The notes below the pieces were generated by a model. The model saw only the letters and a list, made by a program, of their open reading frames with translations. It was not told the origin of the DNA and made no database searches. A stretch of 64,000 nt of DNA from Acidobacteriota bacterium. Lineage in GTDB: Bacteria; Acidobacteriota; Blastocatellia; RBC074. Of the stretch, positions 5,608 through 19,739 are shown in pieces. Each line of letters begins with the position of its first letter. Positions within the stretch are counted from its first letter, which is position 1. Where the stretch lies: positions 19,061 through 83,060 of the forward strand of contig JANRKX010000083.1 of NCBI GenBank assembly GCA_033763255.1. Direction: 5' to 3'. The position numbers and the translations under genes were made by a program.

Positions 5608-5649
5608 AAAACTGCCCGGCGAACGGTTGATTCGCCGGGCAGTTGTTTT
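5608..5649. terminator. Intrinsic, probably bidirectional terminator
   Basis: aactgcccggcgaa-cggttga-ttcgccgggcagtt with A/T flanks, between convergent genes. Confidence 0.75.
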
Positions 5650-8600
5650 TAGCGGAGAAGCCTTAACAACCAGTTCGATTCATCCAGCTTTCTTCCCCAC
5701 AAGCGATGCTGTCGCGTGAAAACACGTACGGATTTATCGTGTCCGCCGGAAGCCAGTTGCTTTCCATCAGGCGAAAAAGCGATGGCGGAAATGGATGCCG
5801 TGTGGATGCCGATTTCAGCAACCTGGCGGCGTGTTGCAACTTGCCAGAGCCTTATCTTTTGGTCATCGCCAACGCTGGCGACCTGTGTGCCGTCAGGCGA
5901 AAAGGCTATTTGTTTGACGCGCGTGGCGTGGTTGCCCAGTCGCCCGATGCGAGCGAGCGGGTCAGTTTGGAAAAGCATCAGTTCGCCGCTGACGTTACCG
6001 ATAATGATGTATCGCCCATCAGGCGACATAGCAGCGCCACCGCTGTCGCCAACTTTGATTTGGCCAAGCAGTCGCCACTGCTCTGTTTCCCATACACAAA
6101 GGCGTCCAAACCCGGCGGCGGCAAGCCGTTTCCCGTCTGCTGAAATCGCGGCGCTCATCGTCCCCCAACTTTCGACTCCAAGCGACGAACTGTACTGAAA
6201 AAGCAGCTTTCCCGTAGCAGCGTCATAAACTCCATCGAAAGCTGCAATCCAGCGCCCTTCCGGCGAAATCGAGATTCGTTTGGCGCCGAAGTCGGTTTTA
6301 ACCCGCCATCGAGGTTGACGCTCGGCAAGCTCCCAGCGAATCAACTCGCCGTCCCAACCATTTGAAACAAGCCATTGGCTGTCAGGCGAAAAGGCAACGC
6401 CGTTGACATGCGATTGATGTCCAACCAGAGCCATTTCCTTGCGCCCGCTGTAGGCGTTCCAGATCAAGACCGAACGGTCTTCGCTGCCTGATGCGATGTG
6501 TTGGCCATCGGGAGAAAAGGCTACTGCCGCAACCGGACTGCTGTGTTGAGCCAGGTCGCCAGCGCGTTCGCGTGCAATCACGTCCCACAGCAGGATTGAG
6601 CCGTCGTCGTGCGTCGAAACCAAATACTGCCCGTCTGGTGACCACGTCAACCCCCAAATTTCGGCTGAATGATCCCATTGTGTGATGATTTCCTGAGTCG
6701 CGGCATTCCACAGGATGATGTCATCCGCACCAGTGGCCACTAATTTGCCGTCGGGCGAAAAGGCCACCGCACGCCCGTTGTCGTGATGGACGAAATGTGG
6801 CGAGCAAATCGCCTTCCCTCGCGCCGGATCGTAAAACACTACTTCCCCACGAATCCTTACCGTTACCAGCCGCAATCCATCCCGCGAAAATTCGACACCG
6901 GCAGCGAAGTCGAAGCCAGCCGGCCGCTTCACTTCTTGCCCCGTTTCAACGTCGAATGTCTGGCCAGCGTTAAACAAAAGCTGTGGATGCTTTGGGGAAA
7001 ACAGCAAAGGAGACCAATCCCCTGAATACATGGGAATCTCGCGGTGTTTCTCCCAACTTTCAACGTGCCAGACTGCCGTAACGCCAGTCCCGACGTTGAG
7101 CCCTGCCGCCAGATATTTGCCGTCGGGAGAAAAAGCGACGCCAGTGAAAGGGCCGCGCGGATCGTGCAAAACTTTGATCTTCTCCAAGCTTTCCGCATCC
7201 CACACGATCACGCTTCGATCCCAACTTGCCGTCGCCAAGAACCGTCCGTCGGGCGAAAAAGAAACCGCCACCACCCAGGCCGTGTGATCCTTCAGTTCGC
7301 GCTTCAGTTCGCGCCGGTTAAAATCCCACACGCGCACGCGACTGTCTTCACCGACCGAAACCAGCCAGTGGCCATTGGGCGAAAAAGCCGCGCGTCGCAC
7401 GCCCGCCGTATGCCCATCGCGCAAGACTCGTTCATCCCATTTTTCCTCAACGGAATTCCACGCAGTGAAAACCAGTGTCACCAAACCGGCCAACATTGCG
7501 ATTGCTGCTACTTTGCCCAGTGCGCTCAAATAACTGCGCCGTAGTAACGAAGATTCCAATGAGCCGCGTTTGACAGTCGAGTGTCGCCCAATTGTCCATA
7601 GTGCGGCGGGCGACAGGCGGATGCTTTTGTCACTGGCATAAAGCGCGACGGCTTGATTCAACAGTTGGTTGGCGCGTTTTTCCGCCAGCGTCCGGGCGCG
7701 CTCTTCAAGCTTGGTTTGCGCTGGCGGACGAAGTTCATTCAGCGCGTCCAGCATTTCCCCAGCGGAAGCAAGCCGTTCATCGCGGGATTTTCGCGTAGCC
7801 TTCTTCACGACGGCATCAAGCGCCGCAGGCAGGTCTTTGCGCTGTGCGTTGAGCGGCGGGAGTTCTTCAGACTTTCTTACGGCCTCCAGCTTTTCCTGAA
7901 GCGATAGTTTGGCGTAAGGATGCCCCGCGAGCATTTCGTACATCAATACGCCGAGCGAAAAAATATCCGTCCGGGCGTCTATTTCTTTTTCTCCACGCGC
8001 CTGTTCCGGCGACAAATAACCGGGCGTTCCCAACACCAACCCGGCTAGTGTCGCATTTGATTGGCTTGTCAGGTTGCCACCACTGGTTTCGGCTGCGGGC
8101 AGATCGAAGCGTTTGGCGATACCGAAATCCAGCGCCTTGACCAAACCGTCGGCCCGCAACATGACGTTTTCCGGTTTGATGTCGCGGTGAATGATGCCTG
8201 CGTTGTGGGCTGCATTGAGTGCGGCAGCGATTTCCGCGCCGATGCCGACGGCTTCCTGCCAACTCGGTTTGGAATCTTGCAGCCGCTGCCGCAGTGTCCG
8301 GCCTTCGACAAATTCATAAGCGATAAAAACTGTTTCTTCGTGCTGGCCGATTTCGTGAACGGTGATGATATTCGGATGGTTCAACATCGAAGCCGCGCGC
8401 GCTTCCCGCTCGAAGCGTTGCAGCAGCGCAGGCGAAGAACCCAAATGCGCCGTCAGAAACTTGATCGCCACTTGCCGATTCAGCTTTGAATCTTCGGCCA
8501 GCCAAACTTCGCCCATTCCGCCTTCGCCCAGCAGCCGCAGAATCTGATAATGGCCGACTTGCTCTCCCGCCCAATCTCGCCGTGAAGCGTCGGCCAGTTG

Positions 8601-8813
8601 TCGCGCGGCCAGTTTGATGGCTGATGTCGGCAACGCTCCATCATCGTTATTCGCGTGATCCAGCAAGGATTCAAGCTCTGCGCGCATCTCGACATCGTCG
8701 CGGCAAGCCTCGGCCAGGAAAGCCTTGCGTTCCGCCGGAGGGAGTTGGATGGCTTGTTCGAACAATTCAATCAGCCGTTCACTGCGATCATCGGGTGTGT
8801 CATCTGAGTTCAT
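5649..8813 (-). CDS. Hanks-type Ser/Thr protein kinase with one TM segment and C-terminal WD40 repeats
   Basis: GEGGMGEV, VAIK, HRDIKPEN, DFGIAK, GTPGYLSPE; TM VAAIAMLAGLVTLVFTAW; many AFSPDG...WD repeats; ATG 8813 preceded by GGAGG. Confidence 0.92.
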   Translation of the reverse strand: MNSDDTPDDRSERLIELFEQAIQLPPAERKAFLAEACRDDVEMRAELESLLDHANNDDGALPTSAIKLAARQLADASRRDWAGEQVGHYQILRLLGEGGMGEVWLAEDSKLNRQVAIKFLTAHLGSSPALLQRFEREARAASMLNHPNIITVHEIGQHEETVFIAYEFVEGRTLRQRLQDSKPSWQEAVGIGAEIAAALNAAHNAGIIHRDIKPENVMLRADGLVKALDFGIAKRFDLPAAETSGGNLTSQSNATLAGLVLGTPGYLSPEQARGEKEIDARTDIFSLGVLMYEMLAGHPYAKLSLQEKLEAVRKSEELPPLNAQRKDLPAALDAVVKKATRKSRDERLASAGEMLDALNELRPPAQTKLEERARTLAEKRANQLLNQAVALYASDKSIRLSPAALWTIGRHSTVKRGSLESSLLRRSYLSALGKVAAIAMLAGLVTLVFTAWNSVEEKWDERVLRDGHTAGVRRAAFSPNGHWLVSVGEDSRVRVWDFNRRELKRELKDHTAWVVAVSFSPDGRFLATASWDRSVIVWDAESLEKIKVLHDPRGPFTGVAFSPDGKYLAAGLNVGTGVTAVWHVESWEKHREIPMYSGDWSPLLFSPKHPQLLFNAGQTFDVETGQEVKRPAGFDFAAGVEFSRDGLRLVTVRIRGEVVFYDPARGKAICSPHFVHHDNGRAVAFSPDGKLVATGADDIILWNAATQEIITQWDHSAEIWGLTWSPDGQYLVSTHDDGSILLWDVIARERAGDLAQHSSPVAAVAFSPDGQHIASGSEDRSVLIWNAYSGRKEMALVGHQSHVNGVAFSPDSQWLVSNGWDGELIRWELAERQPRWRVKTDFGAKRISISPEGRWIAAFDGVYDAATGKLLFQYSSSLGVESWGTMSAAISADGKRLAAAGFGRLCVWETEQWRLLGQIKVGDSGGAAMSPDGRYIIIGNVSGELMLFQTDPLARIGRLGNHATRVKQIAFSPDGTQVASVGDDQKIRLWQVATRRQVAEIGIHTASISAIAFSPDGKQLASGGHDKSVRVFTRQHRLWGRKLDESNWLLRLLR

Positions 8814-8859
8814 TGTGGGATACCTCCGTTGAAGCGCGATTGTCACGACCGCGTTTCGG

Positions 8860-9417
8860 CTATTTTTCCAATTCTCGCCGCAACCAGGTCATCGCAAAGT
8901 TCCAGTAACGGGTCGCTGCCGTTTCGGAAATGCTCATCGCTTCGGCGATTTCCTTGTTCTGGAACCCGCCGAAGAAACGCCATTCGACGACAAACGCCGC
9001 GTTGGCGTTGAATGCGGCCAATCGTTCCATGGCTTCGTGAATGGCTACGATGTCGGCGAGCGATGTCGTCTGGCAGATGGTGACATCGCCCAGCGAAACC
9101 TGCGCCGCGCCGCCGCCACGCTTTTGGTAGGCTTGCGCCCGCGCCCAATCCACCAGAATGTGGCGCATTGTCGTTGCGGCCACGGCGATGAAATGCGCGC
9201 GGCTTTGCCAATTGACCTGCCCGCTTTCCAGCAATCGCACCCAGGCTTCATTAACCAACCCCGTTGTTTGCAGCGTGTGGCCATCGCGCTCGCCGCGCAA
9301 GTAATGGCGCGCCAAGCGGCGCAACTCCGCGTCCACCAGCGCCGCAAGCTGTTCAAACGCCTGCCGGTCGCCCGCGCGCCAAGCCGCCAATAGATCGGTA
9401 AATTGTGGTGTAGTCAT
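8860..9417 (-). CDS. ECF-type RNA polymerase sigma factor (TIGR02999-like, kinase-associated)
   Basis: [47 protein letters not shown], C-terminal region 4 HTH; directly upstream of the kinase. Confidence 0.9.
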   Translation of the reverse strand: [185 protein letters not shown]

Positions 9418-10218: not shown

Positions 10219-10230
10219 GTGGAGTTGCCC

Positions 10231-11646
10231 ATGTCTATCATCAATACTCCGGCACCAGTTCTTTCGGCAGAGTTGTTTAATATCCCGGTCGAGAATAATC
10301 GCTACATTGTTTATGCGCCGTTACGCCGCGCAGCCTTTGTTGCCAATGCCAGCGTGGTGAATTTTCTAGCCTCTCTCAAAGAAGGGCACAGCGATTTATC
10401 CGCTGACCCAGACGGTTCGTTAGTCGAATTGCTACGACTGCTTGAAATACTTGATGCGCCGCCCGAACAATTGCCAATCTCGGAATTCAGCGGAGACCCT
10501 GAACCAACCTCTGTCACCTTATTCTTAACCACGGCCTGCAATCTTCGTTGTACCTATTGCTATGCCTCAGCGGGCGACACGCCAACAAAATATATGCCGC
10601 TTGATGTCGCCAAAGGCGGCATTGATTTTGTTGCAGCAAATGCAGTCAAGAAAGGATTGCCGGAATTTGAGATTGCCTACCACGGTGGAGGCGAACCCAC
10701 GGTCAACTGGCGCGTGATGACGGAATCGCTCAACTATGCGCGCCAAAAGGCCGCCGAATTGAATCTGGAGGTGCGCGCGGCTTCAGCCTCGAACGGCGTG
10801 CTCAATGACGGGCAGATTGATTGGATCATCGCCAATTTGCAGGGCGTCAACATCTCATTCGACGGGCTGCCTTTGGCGCACGACAAGCACCGGCTGACAG
10901 TGCTGGGGCAAGGTTCCAGCCACTTGGTGATGCGCACGATCCGCCGCTTCGACGAAGCGAAATTCCCTTACGGGCTTCGCGTCACAGTCACGCGCGATCA
11001 AATTGCCCAATTGCCGGAATCCATAGAATTCATTTGCGCGAATTTCAATGTCGAGCGCATTCAGGTTGAGCCAGCCTATCAATTGGGTCGTTGGACCGCC
11101 GCGCCCTCTGCGGAGACTGAAGAATTCATCGCCGCTTATCGCGAAGCGCAAGCCCGCGCCCGTCAGCACAGTCGTGCAATCAGCTATTCCGCCGCGCGCG
11201 CCGGTTTGCTGACCAATCACTTCTGCGGCGTTTCGCAAGACACTTTCGCGCTTTCGCCGGATGGCAACGTGTCCTCCTGCTATGAAGTCTTTTCGGAAGA
11301 CAACCCGCAAGCGAAGTTCTTCTTTTACGGGGCGCCAGCGGAAGAAACGGGCCAATACCGCTTCAATCTACCTGTGCTGAACAACCTGCGTCATCTTGGC
11401 GTGCAGCATCGTGAGTTTTGCCGGGGCTGTTTCGCCAAATGGTCATGCGCGGGCGATTGTTATCACAAAGCGCTGACGGTCACCGGCAGCGAAGAGTTTC
11501 AAGGCTCAGACCGCTGCCACATCACGCGCGAACTGACGAAAGATCAAATTTTGGAAAAGATCGCTGCACCGGGCGGCCTGTTCTGGCATGAAGGGAACTT
11601 GGCAGATGGGAACGTCATTGCAAAAGGCAAGGAGATGTTTGTATGA
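10231..11646 (+). CDS. Radical SAM/SPASM domain protein, probable peptide/protein maturase (alternative GTG start 10219)
   Basis: CNLRCTYC cluster motif, HGGGEPT, ISFDG; SPASM Cys set FCG...SSC...CRGCFAKWSCAGDC...DRC. Confidence 0.92.
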   Translation: MSIINTPAPVLSAELFNIPVENNRYIVYAPLRRAAFVANASVVNFLASLKEGHSDLSADPDGSLVELLRLLEILDAPPEQLPISEFSGDPEPTSVTLFLTTACNLRCTYCYASAGDTPTKYMPLDVAKGGIDFVAANAVKKGLPEFEIAYHGGGEPTVNWRVMTESLNYARQKAAELNLEVRAASASNGVLNDGQIDWIIANLQGVNISFDGLPLAHDKHRLTVLGQGSSHLVMRTIRRFDEAKFPYGLRVTVTRDQIAQLPESIEFICANFNVERIQVEPAYQLGRWTAAPSAETEEFIAAYREAQARARQHSRAISYSAARAGLLTNHFCGVSQDTFALSPDGNVSSCYEVFSEDNPQAKFFFYGAPAEETGQYRFNLPVLNNLRHLGVQHREFCRGCFAKWSCAGDCYHKALTVTGSEEFQGSDRCHITRELTKDQILEKIAAPGGLFWHEGNLADGNVIAKGKEMFV

Positions 11647-14087
11647 AGACCGAAAGACCACAGTTTGAATTGGCGCATGTTTCTGTTGATGAAACAAAGG
11701 GCTCGCCAGAAATTATTCCAGTTAGTCAGGTACCCCAAAGTGCTAACCTAGCGCGACGGGGCTTTTTGGGCATCGGAATCGGGGCAGCCTCGGCGCTGCT
11801 TTTCATTGATGGTAAGGCAGCAGACAGAGGGAACGGCGAACATTCGCAAGTGGACTCAACTTCGGGCGCGGACGACGCCAGCGGCACTTTTACGCCAGCG
11901 CCAAGCAACGTGTTGAAGGCCCATCGAGGGAGTGTTAATGCCTTGGCAGTAAGTCCTGACGGAAAGACCATCATCTCTGGCTCAGGCGACAATACGATCA
12001 AACTGTGGTCATTGGCCGACGGTAAATTGCGCTCCACCCTCGAAGGGCATCGCAGTGAAGTCAAAGCATTGGCGATCAGCCCGGATGGAACAAAACTCTC
12101 ATCCCGCGACGCAAGCAGGACAATTAAGCTTTGGTCATTGTCATTGCCTGAAGGTCGGCTGTTATCCACGCCGCATGGCGTCAAATCATTGGCGATTAGC
12201 CCCAATGGGAAAATACTGGCCTCTGCGGCAGGAGAGAAAGACATTCAGCTATGGTCATTGTCAGAACGTAAGATGCTTGCCACGCTGGAAGGGCATACGA
12301 AAAGCGTCAGAATGCTGGCAATTTCACCCAATGGAAATATCCTGGCGTCCAGCGCCGATGATAGGAGCATAAAGCTGTGGTCATTGCCCGAAGGGAAGCT
12401 GCTTGCCACTTTCCAAACAGATGCTGAGTCAGTCCACCAGATTACGTTCGCTGCCGACAGTAAAGCATTGCTATCACGTTCCACGAATGGCATAGCCAAG
12501 CTGTGGTCATTGCCCGAAGGAAAGTTGCTTACCACACAATCCGGGGTTCGCGTCTCAGCAATCAGCCCCGATGGAAAGAATTTGGCATTGGCATCAGTAG
12601 ATATCAGAATTGTACCCGTGTCCAAAGGCAAGGCACTGACTCTTAAAGGACATAGCGCGGCTGTCAACTCGCTGGCATTTACCCCTGATGGAAGCTTGTT
12701 GGCCTCAGGCTCGGAAGATCACTTCTCCCCGATCAGGCTTTGGTCATTAGCAAAAGGAAAGCTGCTATCCACAGTTCAAGGAGACAAAGTTTTAGGAATC
12801 ACTGCTGATGGAAAAACGCTTCTATCGGCTTCTTCGGATGGTAATCTTGGCCTCTGGTCACTGCCCGATGCGAAATTACTTGCGACCGTTAATGCAAAGA
12901 TCATTTGGAACAGCATATTTGCGATCAGCCCTGACGGAAAGATGTTGGTAGTCGCTTCCAATGATGGGACTACCGCTTTATGGTCGCTCCCTGAAGGCAA
13001 GCTGCTTACAACTCTCCGAGGAAGCACGGAAGCAGTCGAAGCAATAGCAATCAGTCCTGACGGAAACATATTGGCCTGTGGCCTTGAGGATAGCACGATC
13101 AAGCTTTGGTCATTGCCCGAAGGTAAGTTCATCGCCAGCCTTGCCTCGTATCCGGAGTTTGTCGAAAAGTTGGCGATCACTCCAAACGGGAAAACGCTGG
13201 CCACCATCGAAGGTAAGGCCATCAAGCTTTGGTCATTGCCTGAAGGCAGATTGCTTTCTACCTTTGAAGACCATCAGGGATATATCAAGGCGTTAGCCGT
13301 AAGTCCTGACGGGCGCATCCTGTTATCAGGGGATAGTGAGGGCGTGGTTATCCTTTGGGATTTGGAAAAGCATTCCTTCCTCAGCTTTCTCTTTGACTCA
13401 AAGCAAAACGAGAAGGACGCAATTTCTTACAACGTCTATGATCACACCAGCGGTCGCTTCATAACGTATATTCTGCCTTGCGGCTCCCCGATTCCCGCAG
13501 GGGCGACCTGTACTTGCAATTGCGTTCCAGGAACCTTTGGAAAACGAATTTCCGATCCGCCACTTCGCCCGACAATTATTTCCCCTTCGCCTTCGCCAAC
13601 AATTTCTCCCTTGCCAGAGCCGAGCGGCGGTTCTCGTAGTAGCACCCAACCATGTGGCCAGCCTATCCCGCCAGGTCAGACTTGCACCTGTAATTGCATT
13701 CCTTCTGACCGCGATGTCAAAGAAGCCTTCGAAGCCACTGACCCGATGCTGATTCTGCAACGTCTATCTGAGCTACCAATCCAAACCTGGAACTACAAAT
13801 GGAATGACGCCGCCGTACGCCACATTGGACCGATGGCGCAGGATTTCGCGGCGGCCTTTGCCGTTGGGGAAGACGACAAGCATATCTGCACTGTGGATGC
13901 ACAAGGTGTCGCCTTAGCAGCCATCCAAGGACTGTATCGAATCCTGCAAGAAAAAGACGCTCAGTTGGAAGATCAGCGTGGTCAGACGGAAAGTTTACGG
14001 GAACAGTTGCAGCAGCAACAGAGCGAGAATCTGGATTTCAAGACCAGGATTGAGGCTTTGGAATGCTCAATCATCACGAGGAAGTAA
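11643..14087 (+). CDS. Tat-signal WD40 protein with two Cys-rich repeats and C-terminal peptidase S74 (intramolecular chaperone/auto-processing) domain plus coiled coil
   Basis: ARRGFLG followed by hydrophobic stretch; about a dozen AISPDG...KLWSLPEG repeats; PCGxPIPxGxTCTCNC x2; SDRDVK...WNYK...HIGPMAQDF...GVALAAIQGL; ATGA overlap with the rSAM stop. Confidence 0.85.
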   Translation: MKTERPQFELAHVSVDETKGSPEIIPVSQVPQSANLARRGFLGIGIGAASALLFIDGKAADRGNGEHSQVDSTSGADDASGTFTPAPSNVLKAHRGSVNALAVSPDGKTIISGSGDNTIKLWSLADGKLRSTLEGHRSEVKALAISPDGTKLSSRDASRTIKLWSLSLPEGRLLSTPHGVKSLAISPNGKILASAAGEKDIQLWSLSERKMLATLEGHTKSVRMLAISPNGNILASSADDRSIKLWSLPEGKLLATFQTDAESVHQITFAADSKALLSRSTNGIAKLWSLPEGKLLTTQSGVRVSAISPDGKNLALASVDIRIVPVSKGKALTLKGHSAAVNSLAFTPDGSLLASGSEDHFSPIRLWSLAKGKLLSTVQGDKVLGITADGKTLLSASSDGNLGLWSLPDAKLLATVNAKIIWNSIFAISPDGKMLVVASNDGTTALWSLPEGKLLTTLRGSTEAVEAIAISPDGNILACGLEDSTIKLWSLPEGKFIASLASYPEFVEKLAITPNGKTLATIEGKAIKLWSLPEGRLLSTFEDHQGYIKALAVSPDGRILLSGDSEGVVILWDLEKHSFLSFLFDSKQNEKDAISYNVYDHTSGRFITYILPCGSPIPAGATCTCNCVPGTFGKRISDPPLRPTIISPSPSPTISPLPEPSGGSRSSTQPCGQPIPPGQTCTCNCIPSDRDVKEAFEATDPMLILQRLSELPIQTWNYKWNDAAVRHIGPMAQDFAAAFAVGEDDKHICTVDAQGVALAAIQGLYRILQEKDAQLEDQRGQTESLREQLQQQQSENLDFKTRIEALECSIITRK

Positions 14088-14090
14088 ATT

Positions 14091-14873
14091 ATGCGTAGGC
14101 TACAGGTGATATGTTTACTTGCTGCGGTTGGACTGTTACCCACCGGCTGCGCAGCCATGAAACCAGACGCCACAACAAAAAAGGATGAGATTACCCTCTT
14201 GGTAGATGCTGCGGCCAATGGGGAACGGGATCAGGTGAGCGCGATGTTGAAATCGAGCGAGGTAATGGCGCGACTCAAACAATTCGACGGCAAGCTGGCC
14301 ATCACGCCGCTGCACGCCGCCGCCGCCAAAGGCCAAGTCGAAATCTTGCAACTGCTACTCGATAGTGGGCTGCCGGTGGATGCAAAGGACGATAAGGGGC
14401 AGACGCCGCTGCATATCGCTGTGGGCGAGCGTCAGCGAGAAGCTGTTAGCCTACTGCTGGAGCGAAAGGCCAACCCCGATGCGAAATCCAGTTCGACTCA
14501 TTTTAGCGGCGAGCGCATCTCTACTGGACATGCCGAACTGACGCCACTTTCTTTGGCGGCTAATAGCGGTAACGTGGATATGCTCAAGCTGCTATTGGAC
14601 AACGGCGCTAACATTGACCGCGGCGGCAGCACTGCTACGCCGCTTTATTTTGCCGCTGCTGGCGGTCACGAAGATGCGGTGAAATATCTGCTCAAGCACG
14701 GCGCCAAAGTCAAAACGTGGATCACCTATCAGGCAATCGAAGACTCACAGCCAAAGACGGCGAAACTACTGCGAGAACACTTTTGCCGACGCGAAATGCC
14801 GCAGCCCATAGGAATTGCCAGTTTGGATCGCGCAACTTATGACCTGAGAAAGATGGCAGGATGTGTGCGATGA
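14091..14873 (+). CDS. Ankyrin-repeat lipoprotein
   Basis: Signal peptide with lipobox-like LPTGC; TPLHAAA, TPLHIAV, TPLSLAA, TPLYFAA repeats. Confidence 0.85.
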   Translation: MRRLQVICLLAAVGLLPTGCAAMKPDATTKKDEITLLVDAAANGERDQVSAMLKSSEVMARLKQFDGKLAITPLHAAAAKGQVEILQLLLDSGLPVDAKDDKGQTPLHIAVGERQREAVSLLLERKANPDAKSSSTHFSGERISTGHAELTPLSLAANSGNVDMLKLLLDNGANIDRGGSTATPLYFAAAGGHEDAVKYLLKHGAKVKTWITYQAIEDSQPKTAKLLREHFCRREMPQPIGIASLDRATYDLRKMAGCVR

Positions 14874-18959: not shown

Positions 18960-19739
18960 TTAAAAAACGCGAGCCTCATTTTTCAGCTTGTCCATCAACC
19001 TGGCGGCGATTTCAGACGCGGAGCCTTCGATGAACTGAGTCTGTTTGGATTTTTGCGGCACGTAGATTTTGCGAATCTGCGTTTTCGGAGCCAGATCGTC
19101 CGCCGACAAACCGATGGCTGCCGCATCCAGCTTCTTAATTTCTTTTTTCTTGGCCGCCATGATTCCTTTCAGCGTGGCGTAACGCAGCGTATTGATGCCG
19201 GATTGAATCGTCAGCACCGCCGGAGCAGGGAAGCTGACCCATTGGAAAAATCCGTTTTCCAGTTCGCGTTTGACTTTGATCTTGCCGTCTTCGGATTGAA
19301 CATCCATGACGATGGTGGCGTGCGGAGTTCCCAGCAGTTCAGCCGCGATGACTCCGGTTTGCGCGTAACCGTGATCGTCGGATTGCAATCCGGTCAGCAG
19401 CAGATCGAAACCTTCTGCCTTTGCCGCCGCCGCAATCACCGAAGCCGCGCCGAAAGCGTCCAGGCTGTCGAACGTGGCATCTTCCAGATGCAAGCCACGG
19501 TCGGCTCCGCGCGCCAGAGCTTCCTTGATGACGGATTGCGCGCGCGCCGGGCCTAGGCTAAGCGCGATGACTTCGCCGCCGTGCTTTTCTTTCAGTTGCA
19601 GCGCGGCTTCCAAACCGTACTGATCGGATTCGTTGATCTCGTAAGTCAGGTCTCGATCCTGAATCCAGGTTCCTTGTTCGTTGATGCGAAGAATTGAATC
19701 GTTCTTCGGCACCTGTTTCAGACAGACGATAATTTTCAT
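18960..19739 (-). CDS. etfB: Electron transfer flavoprotein beta subunit
   Basis: MKIIVCLKQVP, GADRG, GLQSDD, RYATLKGIMAAKKK. Confidence 0.95.
   Translation of the reverse strand: MKIIVCLKQVPKNDSILRINEQGTWIQDRDLTYEINESDQYGLEAALQLKEKHGGEVIALSLGPARAQSVIKEALARGADRGLHLEDATFDSLDAFGAASVIAAAAKAEGFDLLLTGLQSDDHGYAQTGVIAAELLGTPHATIVMDVQSEDGKIKVKRELENGFFQWVSFPAPAVLTIQSGINTLRYATLKGIMAAKKKEIKKLDAAAIGLSADDLAPKTQIRKIYVPQKSKQTQFIEGSASEIAARLMDKLKNEARVF

Follow-up and report, generated by a model that had tools for sequence, protein, structure and literature searches.

We analyzed a 64,000-nucleotide stretch of DNA (the window) from a soil-type Acidobacteriota bacterium (GTDB lineage Bacteria; Acidobacteriota; Blastocatellia; RBC074), which occupies positions 19,061 to 83,060 of the forward strand of contig JANRKX010000083.1 in GenBank assembly GCA_033763255.1. 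The window contains a radical SAM/SPASM maturase gene followed by a gene encoding a WD40 protein with a Cys-rich tail that runs directly into a C-terminal peptidase S74 domain, a putative autoprotease and trimerizing chaperone. The maturase gene (10219..11646, plus strand) encodes a 475-residue protein, P0002, recognized by a Pfam Radical_SAM match of 37.9 bits and by profile alignments to SPASM maturases. Its stop codon overlaps the start of the WD40 gene by four bases (ATGA). The WD40 gene (11643..14087, plus strand, as are all of its features given below) is a single uninterrupted open reading frame (ORF) that encodes an 814-residue precursor composed of a signal, WD40 propellers, two Cys cassettes, the S74 domain, and a coiled coil. 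Within the 96.75%-complete genome the P0002-type enzyme is present in a single copy and the Peptidase_S74 match is unique to the ORF at 11643-14087.

The precursor begins with a 37-residue stretch followed by a twin-arginine motif (RRGFLG, residues 38-43) and a hydrophobic segment (together 11643..11822), which is presumed to be a twin-arginine translocation (Tat) signal from its sequence. A twin-arginine motif near residue 38 was matched by regular expression in 42 of 54 family N-termini; most of the others read RRGAL by eye and two rows were truncated at the N-terminus. Several relatives have a lipobox-like Cys past the hydrophobic stretch. The 37 residues that precede the twin arginine (window 11643-11753) are strongly conserved in the S74-bearing clade and are recognizable in distant phyla (PEIY...W..SRRGF). 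Such a conserved stretch is unusual for the n-region of a signal peptide and may be a leader recognized by the radical SAM enzyme.

The body of the precursor is a WD40 beta-propeller region (residues ~88-583, 11904..13391) that gave 261 bits with Pfam WD40 and also matched many other propeller families. In a full-length AlphaFold2 model having a mean predicted local distance difference test (pLDDT) score of 77.3 and a predicted template modeling score of 0.58, residues 88-583 were mostly at pLDDT 80-97 and a beta hairpin (residues 594-611) preceded Cys cassette 1, PCGSPIPAGATCTCNCVPG (residues 612-630, 13476..13532). This cassette is almost invariant across 20 aligned relatives and was the source of the patterns used to search species genomes. 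It is followed by a Pro/Ser-rich linker (residues 631-669, 13533..13649) that varies in length and sequence among relatives and then by Cys cassette 2, PCGQPIPPGQTCTCNCIP (residues 670-687, 13650..13703), which was read from the DNA and its translation. Residues 613-686, which include the linker, fell below pLDDT 50 and were modeled as disordered, with no beta-helix stalk. The absence of a beta-helix passenger claimed in the original prediction, made from the DNA sequence of this window, is thus borne out by the model.

That prediction was that a phage-tailspike-type S74 self-cleaving chaperone is fused immediately after the second cassette, with Ser688 at 13704 and Lys693 in a junction reading ...TCTCNCIP and then SDRDVK. 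The DNA reads exactly so: ACC TGT AAT TGC ATT CCT is followed by TCT GAC CGC GAT GTC AAA, with 13704-13706 the Ser688 codon and 13719-13721 the Lys693 codon. The further motifs on which it relied (WNYK, HIGPMAQDF, and GVALAAIQGL) are all present in the translation. The profile search it had proposed gave a match to Pfam Peptidase_S74 (PF13884) of 37.7 bits versus a curated cut-off of 22 (E 2.5e-9), in which residues 688-739 aligned to profile positions 1-53 of 58 and profile position 1 fell exactly on Ser688. In an alignment of 84 S74 proteins (46 with WD40 and 38 with non-WD40 passengers) 15 positions were invariant: S688, D689, K693, W716, H727, G729, P730, Q733, F735, and six others. These data support assignment of the tail as a Peptidase S74/ICA domain (core residues 688 to ~749, 13704..13889) joined directly to the second Cys cassette.

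A homotrimer and a C-terminal coiled coil had also been anticipated, and the structural models agree with both. AlphaFold2 placed residues 687-814 at pLDDT 85-97, ending as one long helix (residues 750-813; 13890..14087 including the stop codon). When three copies of residues 600-814 were modeled, the interface scores (interaction prediction score from aligned errors, ipSAE) were 0.88, 0.89, and 0.89, whereas the best of three controls gave 0.00; partner pLDDT was 66-67 and at least 47% of the contacts were common to the runs. In the calibration of this tool, 20 of 30 proteins with structures solved as pairs reached the mark, versus 1 of 23 with structures solved as single chains. Only residues 683-810 made up the confident interface, with heptad-spaced interface residues from 764 to 810, and it hence takes in the last five residues of the passenger (683-687). 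The protein is therefore predicted by modeling to form a homotrimer through its S74 core and C-terminal helices, the latter as a three-stranded coiled coil. When viral structures were searched with the full-length model, nothing but beta-propellers was retrieved, which is uninformative on S74.

By analogy with studied S74 proteins the predicted scissile bond is Pro687-Ser688, between nucleotides 13703 and 13704, because it corresponds to MyRF Pro586-Ser587 and to Ser782 of the Bdellovibrio chromosomal fiber Bd3182. PMC8326128 reports that the MyRF cut was mapped to that bond, that cleavage occurs only in the trimer and independently of the upstream fold, and that MyRF S587/K592 are equivalent to S911/K916 of the phage endosialidase endoNF. 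In Bd3182 the crystal trace stops at A781 and the S782A substitution blocks processing (PMC10769870). Cleavage of the window protein at this position would release a C-terminal fragment of 127 residues, the size originally given, and leave a mature C-terminus of ...CTCNCIP. In family ORFs that have short tails and lack S74, the commonest end is four residues past the last Cys (15 of 46), with another 9 of the 46 ending at five, and S74-less relatives with the same duplicated cassette terminate ...CTCNCIPGR or ...CTCNCIPGRY. Since S74-less relatives mostly end about four residues past the last Cys, cleavage would restore the usual C-terminus of the family. The gap between the last Cys and the Ser is four residues in 32 of 48 S74-bearing proteins.

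The breadth of the family was determined with a cassette profile built from the 20-sequence alignment. Among 1.84 billion proteins the profile matched 750 cluster representatives (clustered at 50% identity) with E<=0.001, of which 499 had E<=1e-10. Residues 590-687 were also run in a word-indexed protein search (46 candidates scored, 10 matches), which was too insensitive for counts, and thus the profile search was used. Of 202 stretches that matched the patterns in species-representative genomes, 153 encode relatives. Locus counts were made on 71 loci, which span Acidobacteriota, Pseudomonadota, Chloroflexota, Nitrospirota, Bacteroidota, Verrucomicrobiota, Planctomycetota, Gemmatimonadota, Thermodesulfobacteriota, and others, and a regular expression located 88 cassette ORFs in 69 of them. 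The family, defined by a twin-arginine signal, one or more WD40 propellers, and a Cys-cassette tail, is large and widespread, and we found no paper that describes it. The original prediction had not noticed that the passenger is a member of such a family.

What follows the cassettes differs among family members. The 88 species-genome ORFs comprise 46 with a short tail (an end within 80 residues of cassette 1), 26 with a HYWYPN-type tail, 5 with a helical domain, and 9 with S74, plus 2 that are open at a contig end. The tails of the 150 best cluster representatives were 85 short, 8 HYWYPN-type, 40 helical, and 17 S74 (11 of the window subtype and 6 of a second subtype), counts obtained after removal of one false hidden Markov model (HMM) match and sorting of odd rows by eye. 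P0122, a WD40 piece with a chance SDxxxK, was rejected as an S74 carrier. The count of S74-bearing homologs called for by the original prediction therefore shows them to be a minority (9 of 88 and 17 of 150) and, as judged by this distribution of sequences, S74 is one of several alternative, accessory tails in the WD40 Cys-tail family. Searching from the other end, 48 of the best 120 proteins resembling the window tail have a CxC motif no more than 14 residues before SDxxxK.

The second S74 subtype (P0128, P0130, P0132, P0139, P0210, and P0232) has the junction ...CTCVPI/SSxRWK after the Cys repeats. Our custom S74 HMM and the SDxxxK regular expression both miss this subtype, which was spotted by eye and confirmed by Pfam S74 matches in the two of the six members tested (P0132, 40.3 bits; P0139, 45.8 bits). 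A PDB sequence search with the P0139 tail gave sub-threshold matches in the S74 region (6f45_A, E 0.15, and the MyRF chain 7dc3_A, E 0.41), and in the same search with P0132 WD40 matches swamped the result. As the two subtypes are only 25% identical (E 0.002), they seem to be separate recruitments to the same junction. Fused WD40-S74 ORFs were present in seven species-genome loci. In a quick, midpoint-rooted tree of 49 radical SAM proteins (which excluded enzymes with E >1e-60 or <400 residues, those at contig ends, and those >2.5 kb away from any cassette ORF), the seven enzymes encoded beside S74-bearing substrates formed one clade with a Shimodaira-Hasegawa-like approximate likelihood ratio test (SH-aLRT) value of 100. 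This fits a single gain of the window S74 subtype in an acidobacterial lineage (Pyrinomonadaceae, Chloracidobacterium, Blastocatellia).

The loci also show variation in gene number and tail structure. Locus L013 (5864-11447) has three tandem S74-bearing WD40 paralogs downstream of one radical SAM gene; in the first paralog S74 is apparently truncated with the rest on a second overlapping ORF, possibly owing to a frameshift. The HYWYPN-type tails (L003, L008, L009, L012, L041, L061, and L078) often occur in 3-4 tandem paralogs, and some of these loci have 3-4 consecutive radical SAM/SPASM genes. The helical tail is ~130-190 residues long, starts with CQAH right after the last Cys repeat, and is found mostly in Proteobacteria (L022, L024, L025, L060, L074; P0127, P0144, P0154, and others); no Pfam family was found in the three fragments scanned (P0154, P0176, and P0259). 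Many bacterial S74 proteins having non-WD40 passengers (P0050, P0051, P0053, P0057, P0073, and others) carry a hydrophobic stretch and an Arg-rich end past the coiled coil. Their sequences suggest a MyRF-like layout in which cleavage would release the passenger from a membrane anchor.

The conserved partner of the family is the radical SAM enzyme. P0002 carries a CX3CX2C motif and a C-terminal Cys motif, and it aligns nearly full-length to SPASM maturases (PapB, 142 bits; SCIFF, 114; QhpD, 111; CefB, 87), with the alignments to PapB, CefB, and StsB covering the SPASM part. By its profile scores it is a member of no named maturase family. A P0002-like gene is present in 61 of the 69 cassette loci, in many phyla, and lies within 300 bp in 55. 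In five of the eight loci without such a gene (L021, L023, L036, L038, and L052) the contig that carries the cassette ORF is short or ends close to it. The linkage was also seen in a 401-genome phylum sample, where all five cassette-only matches lay within 2.5 kb of an enzyme relative, and in the converse direction, where 8 of the 10 best enzyme loci contained a WD40 Cys-tail ORF. The Cys-cassette tail is thus the likely substrate of the radical SAM/SPASM enzyme, whose gene is translationally coupled to that of the WD40 protein. From the nearest profiles of the enzyme and the precedent of CrpC, which puts ranthionine cross-links on a Cys-rich protein (PMC13692751), we propose that P0002 probably forms Cys thioether cross-links like PapB, SCIFF, QhpD, and CrpC.

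A related arrangement is found in phages. A back-translated two-repeat pattern retrieved 38 viral-contig stretches, all of which have a Cys-array ORF; 36 of the 38 loci also have a radical SAM match to P0002, although a remote one (E 1e-7 to 1e-15), and in 21 of the 38 an S-x4-K motif follows the array within four residues. The phage junction CTCNCNY/SDxRLK resembles the CTCNCIP/SDRDVK of the window protein. PF13884 was detected in four of five phage array ORFs tested (28-34 bits), the fifth having a 13-residue stub past the motif; such a stub of ~13 residues is all that follows the motif in 12 of the 20 phage ORFs whose array ends in S-x4-K. L095 (4554-7118) and L100 (4938-6995) contain three or four tandem paralogs composed of a CTCNCNY array and a 13-residue stub (SDExxKxxxEY[MI]), in which the following gene begins at the very next base. 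We found no paper on phage proteins that combine a CTCNCNY array with an S74 tail and are encoded beside radical SAM genes.

The possibility that the bacterial module is a recent phage import was rejected. Neither P0002 nor the cassette alignment had close relatives when viral contigs were scanned. In a tblastn search of 50,697 phage records, residues 670-814 matched 4 of them at 37-38% identity, and these matches were confined to the S74 part. Together these results argue that the module was not recently acquired from phage. The genes at 0-30 kb of the window are chromosomal housekeeping genes (GrpE, GroEL, Clp ATPase, Ser/Thr kinase, ECF sigma factor, ETF, aminopeptidase N, and cytochrome oxidase) with no phage gene among them, in keeping with the phage-free context first described.

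The other neighborhood genes that were compared seem not to be part of the system. An ankyrin-repeat protein gene with a lipoprotein-like signal (14091-14873, plus strand) begins four bases past the WD40 stop codon but has no match in any of the 71 related loci. Upstream, on the minus strand, lie a gene for a 1065-residue Ser/Thr kinase with a C-terminal beta-propeller region (5649-8846) and, adjoining it, an ECF sigma factor gene (8860-9417), which also lacks a match in the 71 loci. In all, six window genes considered as parts of the system (ECF sigma factor, DUF2569, ankyrin, two hypotheticals, and a membrane protein) were rejected. As none of the six recurs in the 71 loci, the conserved unit consists of the enzyme and the Cys-tailed WD40 protein.

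Comparison with known systems shows what is shared and what is distinctive. The phage S74 proteins endoNF, T5 L-shaped tail fiber, and GA-1 gp12 have the same Pfam family, S-x4-K at the first residue of the domain, the C-terminal position, and a helical trimerizing end, to which corresponds the homotrimer predicted here. In contrast to these and other tailspike or tail-fiber carriers, the passenger of the window protein is a WD40 propeller plus a disordered Cys-rich tail rather than a triple beta-helix or fiber, and its gene is in a chromosomal context with neither phage nor prophage. The upstream beta-helix Arg that participates in endoNF cleavage (PMC8326128) and the stalk that bears it have no counterpart in the window protein. 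MyRF is similar in having a non-fiber globular passenger and a Pro-Ser bond at the cut (a predicted bond in our protein), but it retains a beta-helical stalk, if a short one, and its ICA domain is followed by a transmembrane anchor, whereas the window protein has neither and instead carries Cys cassettes and a radical SAM partner. A bacterial example is the Bdellovibrio MAT fibers, described in PMC10769870 as 13 chromosomal proteins ending in S74 with SDxxxK that self-cleave at the Ser, in a family that includes S74-less members with other termini. Both families are thus non-phage bacterial proteins with S74-ended and S74-less members. Unlike the window protein, MAT fibers have long trimeric beta-helical passengers and lack Cys cassettes and a radical SAM gene.

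On the enzyme side, CrpA/CrpC of Methanococcus voltae, QhpC/QhpD, the PapB ranthipeptide system, and SCIFF share the placement of a SPASM radical SAM gene beside a Cys-rich substrate, and the best profile matches of P0002 are the PapB, SCIFF, and QhpD maturases. The CrpC substrate is, moreover, a protein rather than a short peptide (PMC13692751). The differences are that P0002 falls under all the curated cut-offs and that its substrate is a presumed-exported WD40 protein of 450-1000 residues with the Cys repeats at the far C-terminus. The phage array proteins resemble the window protein in the CTCNC../S-D-x3-K junction, the S74 domain (4 of 5 tested), and the radical SAM gene (36 of 38), but they are small (~140-380 residues), have 2-10 heptad repeats and no WD40 domain, and their radical SAM proteins are only remotely P0002-like. 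We know of no SPASM Cys-substrate system that contains an S74 domain.

Taken together, the window protein is probably a Cys-tailed WD40 substrate of a radical SAM/SPASM enzyme carrying a working S74 autoprotease and trimerizing chaperone, an accessory added by one acidobacterial lineage. Several observations weigh against this reading. S74 is absent from 79 of the 88 species-genome ORFs and from 133 of the 150 best representatives and, as most family members lack it, seems dispensable for the core function. The trimer score may stem from the memory of the model for solved S74 trimers, and the calibration of the tool was made with two copies rather than three. Residues 600-682 (cassette 1 and the linker) lie outside the confident interface of the model and, as residues 613-686 are disordered, there is therefore no sign of the Cys tails forming an ordered trimer. 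No NCBIfam model matches the S74 tail, and when the PDB was searched by sequence alone, residues 606-814 matched four unrelated entries at E<=10 and no solved S74 chain. P0002 is below the curated cut-off in all 66 of its NCBIfam matches (the best, PapB, is 142 versus 340 bits) and thus its chemistry cannot be assigned. Cleavage at Ser688 would leave only two residues after the last Cys, versus the usual four. Finally, three 87-kDa chains assembled as a trimer may exceed the size that Tat can export in folded form.

An alternative view of the domain is that S74 acts mainly as a self-removing C-terminal follower or cap that holds or masks the Cys tail for the enzyme, or times export, in which case trimerization would only trigger cleavage and the mature protein would be no stable trimer. 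We know of no WD40 propeller that is an obligate trimer. The model is compatible with such a cap in that the confident interface is nearly all in the part to be released (688-810), the passenger contributing only residues 683-687 and having a disordered tail. The phage ORFs that end in a ~13-residue stub (12 of 20) likewise argue that the full chaperone is not always there, and MyRF cleavage is independent of the upstream fold (PMC8326128). However, in all of the cases studied S74 domains leave a trimeric product (PMC8326128 and PMC10769870). Moreover, a direct junction with the last Cys repeat is common to both S74 subtypes and the phage arrays, a hint that it matters how the three tails are registered, and we consider the cap unlikely. 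A different proposal concerns the cassettes, which would not be radical SAM substrates but would bind metal or form disulfides after export, with the enzyme acting elsewhere and S74 trimerizing a metal-binding tail. CxC clusters are typical of metal-binding proteins, and the maturase fits no curated family. We find this proposal decidedly improbable given that the radical SAM gene is the sole conserved neighbor (61 of 69 loci versus none of the six other window neighbors), the enzyme and substrate genes overlap, Cys-thioether maturases head the profile matches of the enzyme, and the phage Cys arrays also adjoin radical SAM genes (36 of 38 loci).

The S74 domain could also be an uncleaved trimerization module or a decaying remnant of domain shuffling, as the apparently truncated S74 of one L013 paralog might suggest. 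This is very hard to reconcile with the invariance of the Ser, Asp, Lys, and 12 further positions in 84 sequences and with long-term retention of S74, which is indicated by the seven S74-linked radical SAM genes forming a single clade (SH-aLRT 100) although the tails of their substrates have diverged by up to ~50%. That the fusion is an artefact of assembly or gene calling, which joined a WD40 gene to a tail-fiber gene, is scarcely credible: the same fused ORF was found in independent assemblies (P0003, 100%, and P0004, 90% identical over the tail) and fusions occur in seven loci of other species.

If S74 is indeed a working autoprotease and chaperone, the following steps may be proposed, in this or another order. 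The radical SAM/SPASM enzyme would act in the cytoplasm on the unstructured Cys cassettes, where thioether links are its most likely products. The S74 core, together with the coiled coil, would gather three chains, as in the trimer model, and after the trimer has formed Ser688, with Lys693 as the base, would cut the Pro687-Ser688 bond by analogy with other S74 proteins and the 127-residue domain would leave. The twin-arginine signal would export the protein from the cytoplasm. The original prediction had suggested that the domain could serve as a follower protease or align chains for inter-chain cross-linking, both of which are conjectures. Because most relatives do without S74, its role would be an added one; our best guess is that it registers the three Cys tails and is then shed through its own cleavage, so that a family-type C-terminus remains.

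The recurrence of the pairing bears on its meaning. The second subtype, which occupies this junction as well (6 of the 150 best representatives), and the phage arrays that run into S-x4-K suggest selection for joining S74 to Cys tails. A speculative extension, which we offer as a doubtful but not negligible prospect, is that the short CxCxC and (CxCxxx)n arrays are enzymatically stapled trimers of a novel kind. S74 would register three strands, the radical SAM/SPASM thioether lock would possibly be inter-chain, and self-cleavage would leave a covalent three-chain knot at the C-terminus; the same device would then serve in phage particle proteins and in exported WD40 proteins, with the stretch before the twin arginine doubling as the maturase leader.

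S74 domains are folding and quality-control devices of trimeric phage fibers, with one eukaryotic case, the MyRF transcription factor. Both S74 domains and SPASM enzymes with Cys-rich substrates are kinds already known; what is new is the joining of an S74 domain to a radical SAM Cys-tail system. We found no paper on an architecture combining S74, a Cys-tailed WD40 protein, and radical SAM (subscription journals and supplements were outside the search), and none linking trimer templating to radical SAM cysteine chemistry. The S74/Cys-tail pairing arose at least three times, as two distant subtypes on bacterial WD40 proteins and in the phage Cys-array proteins, and this repeated origin suggests that trimer templating and the cysteine chemistry of radical SAM enzymes are functionally linked. 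The family itself is a large, unnamed group of presumed-exported WD40 proteins of many phyla with tails like those of peptides made by ribosomes and modified after translation (RiPPs), and would greatly expand the small set of protein-sized SPASM substrates.

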